Below are positions 4,171 through 8,458 of a stretch of DNA of 28,927 nt, in pieces; the first letter of the stretch is position 1, and every line of letters starts with the position of its first letter. Both the position numbers and the translations under genes were made by a program. This DNA is from an uncultured Gammaproteobacteria bacterium (GTDB lineage: Bacteria > Patescibacteriota > Patescibacteriia > UBA2591 > UBA6264): the NCBI GenBank assembly GCA_964507075.1, contig CAZDOL010000003.1:30246-59172 (forward strand). Reading direction: 5' to 3'. The notes under the pieces are model-generated. The model was given only the letters and a program-made list of their open reading frames with translations, was not told the DNA's origin and searched no databases.

Positions 4171-6855
4171 ATGGCTAAGTCTGAAAAAATTATTGAAAAA
4201 CTTCCTCCTCAAAATATTGAAGCCGAACAAGCAGTGCTTGGGTCTTTGTTGATTGACAAAGATGCTATTGTTAGGGTAGCTGATATAATTGTGTCTGAAG
4301 ATTTTTATAAAGATATTCATCAGATAATTTATTCAGCTATGTTAGTGGTTTGGGAGCAAAGGGAACCGATTGATATTTTAAGCATAGCTAATCGTTTAGA
4401 GGAAAAAAAGAAGTTGGATTTGGTTGGTGGACGTAGTTATTTAGCTTCTTTAGCTAACATCGTTCCCACTTCTAGTCATATCACTTCTTATGCTCAAATT
4501 GTACAGAAAAAATCAATTTTAAGGAAAGCAATCAAAGCATCTACGGAAATAGTGAGAATGGCTTATGAAGAAGAAACAGATGCTCTTAAGGTTTTAGATA
4601 AAGCTGAACAAAAATTATTTGATATTTCTCAAAAGTTCGCTAGGCAAAATTTTACTTCTTTAAAAGATACTTTAGCTAATTCTTTTGAGAGATTAGATGA
4701 ATTACAGAAAGGAGATAGATCCATTAGGGGCATTTCAACTGGATTTACAGCTTTAGATAATGTTCTGGCTGGTCTGCAAAAATCAGAATTAATAATTCTA
4801 GCTTCTCGTCCTTCTGTCGGAAAGAGTAGCTTGGCTTTGGATATCGCGCGCAATGCAGCTGTTGCTAATAAAGCGCCAGTTGGTATTTTTAGTTTAGAAA
4901 TGTCTAAAGAACAGGTTAGTGATAGAATGATTTGCGCCGAATCAGGGGTCAATCTTTGGCAATTGCGTACGGGCCGATTTTCCAAAAGTAAAGGAGATGG
5001 CGATTTCAAAAAATTAGGCAAAGCCATTGGACTTTTAGCCGAAGCTCCTGTTTATATTGATGATTCTGCAACCCTTACAATAGCTGAAATAAGAGCAAAG
5101 GCCAGAAGATTGCAATTTGAACATAAGATTGAATTATTGATAGTTGATTATTTACAATTGATGGAAGGAGATAGGGCTAGAGATGGAAGGGTTCAAGAGG
5201 TTTCGGAAATTTCACGTGGATTAAAGGCAGTTGCTCGTGATTTGAATATTCCTGTTTTAGCTCTTTCTCAACTTTCTCGTGCTCCTGAAGCTCGCACTCC
5301 AGCTATTCCTCGTTTGTCTGATTTGCGTGAAAGTGGTTGCTTGACTGGCGACACCCTCATTACTAAAGCTGATACAGGCGAGCGTATTTCTATAAAAGTT
5401 TTAGCTGAAAGAAAAAAACAAATACCGTTTCCTGTCATGGCTGTTGAGGATGATTATAAGGTAAAGCAACATTCTATGGTTAAGGTGTTTTCGTCTGGAA
5501 AGAAAATGGTTTTTGAATTGAAAACACGCAGTGGCAGAAAAATTAAAGCATCAGCTAATCATCCATTTCTGCGCTTAAATGGTTGGACGAAGTTGGGTCA
5601 GTTAAAAACAGGAGATTATCTTGCTCTCCCAAGAAATTTTTCTCCCAAAAAGTCTAAGAATCCTTTAAATAATAAAGAATTGATTTTGTTAGCTCATCTT
5701 TTGGGCGATGGTTGCATTTTGCCGAATCAACTTTTCCATTATACTAGTGCTGACGAAGAAAATATAGAAAGCGTAAGGCAAGCTGCTAAACAAATTTTTA
5801 ATATTAACGGAAGGATAGTTAAGCAAAAGAATTGGTGGCACATTTATTTGACTAGCCCATATCATCTCACTCATGGGAAATATCATCCCATTACTAATTG
5901 GTTCAAGAAGCTTAATATTGAAAGAGTTCATTCGTGGAAAAAGAAAATATCTGATGCTGTTTTTCAATGCGACAACAAGCATATTGCGCTCTTTTTAAAA
6001 CATTTATGGGCAACAGATGGTAATTTAAGCTGGAAACGTATACCCAAAAGAAAACCAGCAGGTGAGATTTATTACGCCAGCAGTAGCGAGATTTTAGTTC
6101 ATCAAGTTCAACATCTTTTATTGCGATTAAATATTCAAAGTTCTTTGAGGGAGATTTCGTCAAAAAAATATAGGACAATGTATCATGTTTATGTTGAGGG
6201 TTCAACCGAACAATTGAAATTTCTTTCCCAAGTAGGTATAGCGGGCAAAAAACGCCATATTATTCCCGACATGGTTATAGCTTTAAAAGAAATCAACCCA
6301 AACCCAAATGTTGATATTATACCAAAGCAAGCATGGAAAATAATTATTGAACCAGCGAAAATTGCTGTGGGCGTTAGCTGGCGTGATGTTTGTCGGGGGA
6401 TAGACACTGCTTATTGTGGGAGCACTCTTTTTAAGAGTGGTTTAAGCAGGAATAGGATGATGAGAGTGTATAATTTTTTAAAAATTCCCATGTTATATAA
6501 TCTTGCTACTTCCGATGTATTTTGGGATAGAATAATCTCTATCAAGAAATTAGGAGTGGAAGAAGTGTATGACGCTACAGTTAAAGGCGCTCATAATTTT
6601 GTCGCTAATGATATTATATTACATAATAGCTTAGAGCAGGATAGTGATGTTGTTATGTTTATTTATCGTAAGTTTATGGATAAAGGTATTAAAAATTGTC
6701 CAGAAGAAGACAAGAATATTGCTGAAATTCATATTTCTAAGCATAGACATGGTCCAGCAGGAATAATGGTGCCCCTATATTTTGATAATGCTACTGCTAG
6801 TTTTAAAAATTTAGATAAGGCGCACACCGAAGGGATAACGGAAGATCCATTTTAA
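4171..6855 (+). CDS. dnaB: replicative DNA helicase DnaB, interrupted by an intein
   Basis: 894-aa ORF with an N-terminal DnaB domain, Walker A SRPSVGKSS and Walker B LLIVDYLQL. The conserved motif is split into LSDLRESG and SLEQDSDVVMFIYR by a 430-aa insertion. Confidence 0.95.
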   Translation: MAKSEKIIEKLPPQNIEAEQAVLGSLLIDKDAIVRVADIIVSEDFYKDIHQIIYSAMLVVWEQREPIDILSIANRLEEKKKLDLVGGRSYLASLANIVPTSSHITSYAQIVQKKSILRKAIKASTEIVRMAYEEETDALKVLDKAEQKLFDISQKFARQNFTSLKDTLANSFERLDELQKGDRSIRGISTGFTALDNVLAGLQKSELIILASRPSVGKSSLALDIARNAAVANKAPVGIFSLEMSKEQVSDRMICAESGVNLWQLRTGRFSKSKGDGDFKKLGKAIGLLAEAPVYIDDSATLTIAEIRAKARRLQFEHKIELLIVDYLQLMEGDRARDGRVQEVSEISRGLKAVARDLNIPVLALSQLSRAPEARTPAIPRLSDLRESGCLTGDTLITKADTGERISIKVLAERKKQIPFPVMAVEDDYKVKQHSMVKVFSSGKKMVFELKTRSGRKIKASANHPFLRLNGWTKLGQLKTGDYLALPRNFSPKKSKNPLNNKELILLAHLLGDGCILPNQLFHYTSADEENIESVRQAAKQIFNINGRIVKQKNWWHIYLTSPYHLTHGKYHPITNWFKKLNIERVHSWKKKISDAVFQCDNKHIALFLKHLWATDGNLSWKRIPKRKPAGEIYYASSSEILVHQVQHLLLRLNIQSSLREISSKKYRTMYHVYVEGSTEQLKFLSQVGIAGKKRHIIPDMVIALKEINPNPNVDIIPKQAWKIIIEPAKIAVGVSWRDVCRGIDTAYCGSTLFKSGLSRNRMMRVYNFLKIPMLYNLATSDVFWDRIISIKKLGVEEVYDATVKGAHNFVANDIILHNSLEQDSDVVMFIYRKFMDKGIKNCPEEDKNIAEIHISKHRHGPAGIMVPLYFDNATASFKNLDKAHTEGITEDPF
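5338..6627 (+). mobile_element. DnaB intein with LAGLIDADG homing-endonuclease domain (aa 390-819 of the ORF)
   Basis: Starts with Cys (CLTGDTLI, block A). Block B is KASANHPF. The two LAGLIDADG-type motifs are LLAHLLGDGCI and FLKHLWATDGNL. It ends HNFVANDIILHN followed by the +1 Ser. Removing it restores the canonical RESG-S(L)EQD DnaB motif. Confidence 0.9.
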
Positions 6856-7550: not shown

Positions 7551-7757
7551 TTAGAATTTATTTCTGGCTCCAGGGCAATTTTCCTGGATAATTCTTTTGC
7601 CCTCGTCAGCATCTTTTTGGGAATTGAAATTCCAGGTATGTACGCTGGCGTAAGAGCCATACTTAAAAGATAAATGTTTTAAGTGATTGTTATTGATTTT
7701 TTCTATTTTAACATTATCTTCATCTTTGATCCTAAAGAAAATTCTATATTCGTCCAT
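7551..7757 (-). CDS. hypothetical small protein (68 aa)
   Basis: ATG preceded by an AAGGGGG Shine-Dalgarno-like sequence and followed by the terminator at 7519..7538. No family recognised. Confidence 0.5.
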   Translation of the reverse strand: MDEYRIFFRIKDEDNVKIEKINNNHLKHLSFKYGSYASVHTWNFNSQKDADEGKRIIQENCPGARNKF

Positions 7758-7823: not shown

Positions 7824-8060
7824 ATGTTAGTTAAGATTAAAGCCATTGTTGGCTCTAAAAAAAATAAAATAGTTCCCTTGTCAGAAGATTCTTTTGAAAT
7901 TCATGTTAAGGCTAAACCTATCCAGGGTTTAGCTAACTTAGCTATAATTTCTATATTAGCTCAACATTTTCAGATTCCAGAAGAAAATATTAAGATTATA
8001 AAAGGATTTAAAACAAGAAACAAGATATTTAAAATTAAAAGGGTTGACGTAAGCTCTTAA
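7824..8060 (+). CDS. DUF167 (YggU-like) family protein
   Basis: 78 aa. The pattern IHVKAKPIQGLANLAII..LA..F.I....I.I..G..... matches the YggU/DUF167 family as I remember it. Confidence 0.65.
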   Translation: MLVKIKAIVGSKKNKIVPLSEDSFEIHVKAKPIQGLANLAIISILAQHFQIPEENIKIIKGFKTRNKIFKIKRVDVSS

Positions 8061-8072
8061 ATTTGTCATAAT
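8044..8072 (+). promoter_or_regulatory. candidate promoter for the 8.1-8.4 kb locus
   Basis: TTGACG (8044-8049), 17-nt spacer ending in TG, CATAAT (8067-8072). It overlaps the DUF167 stop codon. Confidence 0.35.
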
Positions 8073-8102
8073 ATATGTAAATAAGTTAGATGGAGGTACG
8101 CA

Positions 8103-8366
8103 ATGGAAAAAATAGAATTTAGATTAGAGGTTCCTTCTGTTACCGCCGTTATCGAGGTTAACGGCAGGGAGTACAACGAAGAGAAAGGTTGTACATCTCT
8201 GGAGATAGTATCTCCAGTTCTTCATATCGTTTTTGACTTGCCTGGCAAGTATAAATCTCAATTTGCTCAAAAGCGTCTTGCCGAGGCTGTTCGTAGGCTT
8301 GACGTAAAAGGACTTTTGTCTTTGGCAAAGACGCGGTTGTGGCCAGTTGTGCAACAATTGCCATGA
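8103..8366 (+). CDS. 87-aa ORF with a strong SD: hypothetical protein, or alternatively the body of a structured RNA (see findings)
   Basis: GGAGG sits 6 nt before the ATG and a terminator follows. However, GC content and codon choice (gag, aag, gac, ggc, acg, cgg) are atypical for this window. The region is open in three frames on both strands and is packed with perfect hairpins. Confidence 0.4.
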   Translation: MEKIEFRLEVPSVTAVIEVNGREYNEEKGCTSLEIVSPVLHIVFDLPGKYKSQFAQKRLAEAVRRLDVKGLLSLAKTRLWPVVQQLP

Positions 8367-8388
8367 GATTTCTCTATTTTTCATTTTG

Positions 8389-8423
8389 ATAAGCCAGTAT
8401 AATGCTGGCTTATTCATTTTTTT
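8389..8423 (+). terminator. rho-independent terminator
   Basis: ATAAGCCAG-tataatg-CTGGCTTAT (9-bp stem) followed by tcaTTTTTTT. Confidence 0.75.
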
Positions 8424-8441: not shown

Positions 8442-8458
8442 GGGACCCCTGGGGTCCC
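8442..8458. repeat. REP-like GC palindrome GGGACCCC-T-GGGGTCCC
   Basis: It shares the GGGAC/GTCCC arms and the flanking ATAGGGAC (on the minus strand) with the palindromes that flank the Y1 transposase at 20859 and 21602. Confidence 0.5.

Follow-up and report, generated by a model that had tools for sequence, protein, structure and literature searches.

A GC-enriched, hairpin-dense locus in a Patescibacteria-type genome very probably encodes a small protein from an orphan family, with hairpins particular to one lineage

Dual-function RNAs such as SgrS/SgrT and RNAIII/hld carry conserved base-pairing regions and structures that lie outside or beside their open reading frame (ORF). The locus described here, on a window that comprises the whole 28,927-nucleotide stretch of DNA analysed and supplies all positions unless another contig or locus is named, resembles these RNAs in that a short, strongly structured transcript with a small ORF is predicted to be transcribed independently. 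However, the ORF of this locus fills the transcript, and only the protein and the expression signals are conserved. A dual-function sRNA/mRNA was rejected as a candidate because the orthologous loci hold no conserved non-coding or base-pairing region beyond the expression signals. The locus also recalls REP/RAYT-type repeats in its short GC-rich palindromes, one of which lies just downstream of the terminator at 8442-8458; it is perfect, with 8-nt arms 1 nt apart, and is unique in the window. Different GC-rich palindromes were present at the corresponding downstream site of the orthologous loci, and the divergent orthologue in genome G012 has one upstream of its promoter; these flanking palindromes may be hairpins of the REP type. 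Unlike REP/RAYT-type repeats, no two hairpins inside the ORF are alike. Dispersed repeats of the REP type were rejected, since the 344-nt segment that holds the ORF is single-copy in genome G000 and the hairpins of the G012 coding sequence had no significant second copies in the G012 genome.

Another process known to produce perfect stems, and to do so in one event, is template switching (Monttinen and Loytynoja, 2022; PMC8794818), and a yeast study (PMC3820800) reports that quasi-palindrome mutations increase in highly transcribed DNA. Like the template-switch hairpins of the former study, those in the window are short, perfect, lineage-specific inverted repeats that can be read on both strands, and they include clustered multi-base changes that match one arm to the other. 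The stems in that study arose in RNA genes and were then conserved, whereas the stems in the window are unconserved and fall within a reading frame that codes for protein.

Positions 8044-8423 very likely form a self-contained single-gene transcription unit, in which a promoter close to consensus and a strong ribosome-binding site precede an ORF of 87 codons and an intrinsic terminator follows. The candidate promoter that the initial annotation had placed at 8044-8072 was recovered on the plus strand by a consensus scan as a sigma-70-type element, TTGACG-17 nt-CATAAT, which matches the consensus at 10 of 12 positions, with a TG preceding the -10 hexamer. The promoter shares sequence with the final codons and the stop of the DUF167 gene upstream and is conserved in orthologues: the promoter block GGGTTGAC...TTAAAT.TGT was nearly invariant when four orthologous loci were aligned, and an equivalent promoter, TTGACA-17-TAAACT, precedes the G012 orthologue. 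The Shine-Dalgarno sequence GGAGG, which had also been proposed at the outset, stands on the plus strand at 8092-8096 and is separated by 6 nt from the start codon (ATG, 8103). GGAGGT and the ATG were invariant in all four aligned loci, and G012 has AAGGAGG. The coding sequence at 8103-8366 (plus strand) is predicted, from the ORF listing, the orthologues, dN/dS and AlphaFold2, to specify an 87-aa cytoplasmic protein of an orphan family with four beta strands followed by two helices. A strong terminator had been annotated at 8389-8423; the consensus scan placed it on the plus strand at 8388-8414, and the whole element, a stem-loop with a T run after it, spans 8388-8423. Its stem core was kept in all orthologues with one compensatory change, A-U to G-C, and the G012 gene is also trailed by a GC-rich stem and a T run. 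Outside the coding sequence, conservation was confined to the promoter, the Shine-Dalgarno sequence, the start codon, a short pyrimidine stretch and the terminator stem. Because the gene always has its own promoter and terminator, it is probably monocistronic.

The ORF keeps its position, immediately before a FemAB gene, in four further species and in each genome of the genus that we examined. Two protein clusters were related to it at 75% and 66% identity, and further orthologues came from a genome of the same genus (60% identity), three metagenome loci and one locus of a genome collection, so that the identities overall were 75, 66-69 and 60%. The 60% orthologue stands in the public record L007 (CAZTWG010000017.1), whose gammaproteobacterial title is probably wrong, since its gene content, its relatives with genomes of roughly 0.6 Mb and the source name of a related protein indicate Patescibacteria. 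These loci collapse to four distinct DNA sequences. A fifth is G012, the third genome of the genus, in which a copy with 32% identity occupies the same place and matches the family profile at E 4.9e-11. The gene order RecR, DUF167, the small gene, FemAB-family, D-Ala-D-Ala carboxypeptidase-like was kept. The link to FemAB is positional only, since a terminator separates the two genes. In two species a gene for an MscS-type mechanosensitive channel lies between DUF167 and the small gene (L006 1889-2941; L003 1812-2864; L009 2244-3218). The window lacks this channel gene, and there the stop of DUF167 overlaps the promoter of the small gene; the difference amounts to a gene-sized indel in conserved synteny. 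Between RecR and DUF167 the window also holds a 68-aa ORF on the minus strand (7551-7757), with a perfect 12/12 sigma-70 promoter with TG at 7816-7788. Since a 51%-identical counterpart stands at the same place in L005 (E 2e-21), this ORF is probably a second real small gene. Farther upstream, at 4171-6855, a DnaB helicase ORF of 894 aa contains an in-frame insertion that resembles an intein with a homing-endonuclease region.

The family is small and narrowly spread. Its profile matched all three genomes of the genus, and it found nothing in the other 51 genomes of the order save one weak match and nothing in 400 sampled genomes of the class. Among 1.84 billion protein representatives the family comprised six clusters at 50% identity, with lengths of 83-92 aa. 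A profile search over all lengths found no fused or longer forms; a 532-aa match was discarded as a low-complexity repeat. The weak match in the order was MYX07_02515, an 82-aa hypothetical protein of Patescibacteria group bacterium AH-259-L07 (name as given in the source). It is like the family in being small (about 82-92 aa), soluble and without an assigned family, and the motif pattern around strands 3 and 4 and helix 1 is common to both (hhalign E 4e-6, probability 87%). It differs from the protein of the window in that identity is only 27% over 51 columns, the genus is different and the genome is larger; its gene lies at a contig end. A 111-aa ORF near MYX07_02515 (L010 1153-1488, minus strand) shows a family-like central motif by eye and was set aside because its profile match was non-significant (E 0.26).

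The hairpins that had drawn attention to the locus were all present where they had been reported, both on reading of the sequence and in an independent inverted-repeat search, and all lie on the plus strand inside the coding sequence. They are H1 (8145-8165, 7 bp), H2 (8171-8194, 7 bp), H3 (8199-8217, 8-9 bp), H4 (8236-8250), an imperfect hairpin at 8273-8305 (-11.8 kcal/mol), H5 (8318-8332) and H6 (8344-8360, 7 bp including one G-U). Because the 7-nt arms of H4 and of H5 are only 1 nt apart, each of these two in effect forms a stem of 6 bp closed by a loop of 3 nt. H3 together with a T-rich tail (8199-8226) scores as terminator-like within the coding sequence, and this feature is not conserved in the orthologues. 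The GC content was 0.42 at 8100-8400 and 0.24-0.34 in the flanks, in keeping with the enrichment described earlier. The claim that the segment is open in three frames on both strands held only in part: the plus strand has one long frame and the minus strand two. These long minus-strand ORFs, found in the window and in L004, were considered as an antisense gene and rejected: no minus-strand ORF of at least 70 aa overlaps the gene in L005 or L006, so the antisense ORFs are not conserved.

How unusual the hairpins are was estimated by counting perfect stems of at least 7 bp with loops of 3-12 nt. Such stems occur at 2.0 per kb in the window, so that about 0.44 are expected per 216 nt and 3 were seen, which by our own arithmetic corresponds to a Poisson P of about 0.01. 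The initial annotation had expected well under one hairpin of this kind by chance, which was too optimistic. With N-run artefacts set aside (low-count bins only), about 1.5% of 216-nt windows genome-wide had at least three stems. The segment 8080-8423, terminator included, folded at -106.7 kcal/mol, with a z score of -4.58 against shuffled sequences. Its reverse strand was nearly as foldable (z -4.32), as expected of Watson-Crick palindromes. For the coding sequence alone the z score against dinucleotide shuffles was -2.53 (antisense -2.52). When 2002 windows of the 613-kb genome were ranked by GC-adjusted minimum free energy, the coding sequence came 36th and the segment with the terminator 15th, and the windows ranked above them were mostly tRNA or non-ORF sequence. 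The hairpin region is thus a real outlier, in the top 1-2% of the genome.

Sequence comparison of the orthologues argues strongly that 8103-8366 is under purifying selection as translated-type sequence, and the locus is very probably a protein gene and not a structured RNA. In the codon alignment the orthologue differences at codon positions 1, 2 and 3 numbered 20/9/41, 21/16/44 and 23/19/46; the one 9-nt indel among the orthologues is in frame, and the reading frame was open in five species. The dN/dS ratio (Nei-Gojobori) was 0.09-0.17 where dS was computable; these ratios come from four to five sequences whose dS is near saturation. For RecR and FemAB, next to it, the range was 0.07-0.26, and the small gene was similar to RecR, DUF167 and FemAB. 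Together with the conserved Shine-Dalgarno sequence and ATG, these data support the 87-aa ORF that had been proposed to fill the segment.

The alternative offered alongside that ORF, an unclassified structured non-coding RNA in which the ORF is incidental, is very improbable. It would fit the dense hairpins and raised GC of the segment and its z of -4.58, a rank of 15th to 36th among windows whose better-ranked members are mostly non-coding, and the presence of a promoter and a terminator of its own. Against it stand not only the third-position excess, the in-frame indel, the low dN/dS, the conserved translation signals and a confident fold prediction for the protein family but also the fate of the hairpins themselves, since the protein is conserved while drift, synonymous and in some places non-synonymous, breaks H2-H6 in the orthologues. 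The initial annotation had named this very pattern as the sign of a plain coding sequence. H1 was retained only in the nearest relative. The pairs kept in orthologues were 4-5 of 7 in H2, 2-4 of 8 in H3, and 3-5 of 6-7 in H4, the 8273-8305 stem, H5 and H6. Covariation on H1-H6 did not rise above shuffled controls (70.7% vs 69.5% of pairs formed; 3 vs 2.3 double changes), and the RNAalifold consensus of the orthologues recovered none of these hairpins. The dinucleotide-shuffle z scores of the orthologous coding sequences were 0.03 (nearest relative), -1.51 and -2.22, and their structures were unrelated. Five species underlie the tests of covariation and folding z score. No Rfam family was matched by the locus, for which the best scores were 11-20 bits against thresholds of 42-249 (E 0.45 or worse), and none was matched at the gathering threshold in the four orthologous loci. 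On these comparisons the hairpins of the window are a nucleotide-level feature of one lineage, with no conserved RNA structure. A type I toxin or small membrane peptide, usually shorter than 60 aa and with a hydrophobic transmembrane segment, was also rejected, as the protein is 87 aa long and charged throughout, with a maximum 19-residue Kyte-Doolittle mean of 1.17.

Two properties of the coding sequence were examined further across the orthologues, the GC content at third codon positions (GC3) and foldability under synonymous shuffling. GC3 was 0.32-0.48 in all five orthologues, compared with a genome mean of 0.257 (sd 0.033), and it stayed raised although dS is saturated. The genes for EF-Tu and ribosomal proteins had an ordinary GC3 of 0.22-0.31; codon optimisation was therefore rejected as the cause, and the raised GC3 is not expression-linked codon choice. 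The synonymous-shuffle z scores were -1.65 in the window, where 9 of 150 shuffles were as stable, -0.31 in the nearest relative, -1.62 and -2.61 in two other orthologues and -6.79 in G012. In the control set of 22 neighbouring-gene segments the mean was -0.41 (sd 0.73) and the minimum -1.64. In several lineages the gene leans towards unusually strong folding. The G012 coding sequence reached a dinucleotide-shuffle z of -7.55 in the sense and -5.31 in the antisense direction, and it was the most structured of 405 windows in the 80 kb of G012 that was sampled. Five hairpins, different from those of the window, tile nearly the whole of it. The final three codons of this copy, stop included, repeat in reverse complement three codons that lie shortly upstream and replace the C-terminal QQLP kept by most members, and the position of a conserved Trp is overwritten by a palindrome arm. 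The GC3 raised in all five orthologues and the different hairpins in G012 suggest lineage-specific gain of palindromes, through either selection on mRNA stability or template-switch mutation.

For the window by itself the hairpin excess is modest (z -2.5 with dinucleotide and -1.65 with synonymous shuffles), and chance is a fair explanation. As about 1.5-2% of genomic windows are as hairpin-rich or as stable, roughly one such case is expected by chance in a 29-kb scan, and under synonymous shuffling the lowest control, at -1.64, came close to the window. That the cluster is a chance event on a GC-richer coding sequence, and biologically meaningless, is quite possible, though we lean against it: in G012 this gene is the strongest outlier, and its GC3 is raised in every orthologue. 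With low confidence, we take the raised GC3 and the hairpin load as signs of a pressure that acts at the nucleotide level. One form of it would be selection favouring an mRNA that is compact and resists nucleases; another would be template switching that repeatedly perfects quasi-palindromes in a heavily transcribed unit.

Under the former, the gene would encode its protein and, in each lineage separately, its mRNA would also be selected for compactness and hairpin tiling, the folded state being kept while the individual pairs are not; the benefit might be a long half-life in an AU-rich transcriptome exposed to RNases, or control of translation. The GC3 data, which high-expression codon usage does not explain, agree with such selection, as do the synonymous-shuffle z scores, which in four of the five orthologues lie below those of controls from neighbouring genes, and the stronger structure of the sense strand in G012. 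We nevertheless regard it as somewhat unlikely, because the nearest relative shows no excess by either shuffle, because strand asymmetry is not consistent (the two strands are equal in the window, and in L006 the antisense strand is the stronger) and because five lineages only are available. Template switching between the nearby arms of quasi-palindromes as the DNA is replicated, with a protein that tolerates the changes, would make the hairpins mutational by-products, and to this we give the same rather low credence. The mechanism is documented (PMC8794818; for the link to transcription, PMC3820800), the palindromes are Watson-Crick on both strands, and in G012 palindrome arms have overwritten C-terminal codons and the Trp position. 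In the lineage of the window, 8 of 13 unambiguously derived substitutions fell in hairpin arms where 4 were expected, although the choice of hairpins on the sequence of the window itself biases this test; some of these substitutions are non-synonymous and clustered, as in H3. However, template switching leaves the raised GC3 unaccounted for, and the high transcription that it calls for is deduced from the promoter only. A broader proposition, that a lineage-specific force tiles the coding sequences of this family with palindromes and in G012 (z -7.6) does so to the point of overwriting conserved residues and the C-terminus, is in our judgement unlikely. Were it correct, the transcript would have to be a compact structured RNA as well, or else the gene would be a natural template-switch hotspot that visibly reshapes its protein.

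The protein itself was compared with sequence and structure collections. Sequence profiles from Pfam, NCBIfam, PADLOC, PHROGs and PDB gave nothing below E 0.03 and nothing common to more than one family member, and a search of the ESM Atlas with the protein returned nothing. Since no family was matched, the profile search, which the initial annotation had seen as a way of deciding for a coding sequence, is silent on the choice between RNA and protein. AlphaFold2 with 10 sequences gave a model with pLDDT 91.8 and pTM 0.79, while with 4 sequences the pLDDT was 56. The predicted fold has four long strands (residues 4-47) and two helices (53-68 and 72-85). The best match was E 0.38 with Foldseek against the PDB, E 0.085 in BFVD and, with VIA-align over 48,161 chains, Z 5.5 (RNA polymerase beta-lobe and Mur-ligase fragments), the best background Z of this tool being typically 7-8. 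The MurE/MurF chains scored Z 5.2-5.5 over 70-71 residues, against the same background, and covered only a fragment of the domain (Foldseek E 0.8-1.3). Because the structure-search scores lie at or below background, no fold was assigned.

In the ten family members, the invariant and near-invariant positions were mostly those of the hydrophobic core, with no catalytic-looking motif, and no hydrophobic segment was found in the family protein. The net charge ranged across the ten members from 0 to -7 in the strand half and from +2 to +8 in the helical half. The basic half was present in all ten members and the full charge dipole in eight, the N-terminal half having a net charge of 0 in P0004 and P0009. 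With medium to low confidence, the product may be a small soluble non-enzymatic binding protein in which the four-stranded sheet is acidic and the helical hairpin basic. In this model the basic helices suggest a nucleic acid or another polyanion as the partner, nucleic acid being the most obvious candidate. The strong predicted promoter and ribosome-binding site suggest that the protein is probably abundant.

To judge from its sequence and its conservation, then, the locus is a conserved small protein gene, predicted to be independently expressed, of an uncharacterised orphan family in an ultra-small bacterium of the Patescibacteria type. Since it is a protein gene and not a new class of RNA, there is no case for pursuing it as a riboregulator. 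The recurrent palindrome load is a curiosity and is not established; it nevertheless offers a modest natural example of codons on which the gain of palindromes and the conservation of the protein both act, and the locus could serve for the study, in reduced genomes, of selection on mRNA structure or of mutation by template switching. The further value of the locus, likewise modest, lies in its genus-restricted small protein, apparently strongly expressed by prediction, whose fold is predicted with confidence and resembles no solved structure. In a host genome of 0.6 Mb, every gene that is retained is likely to matter.
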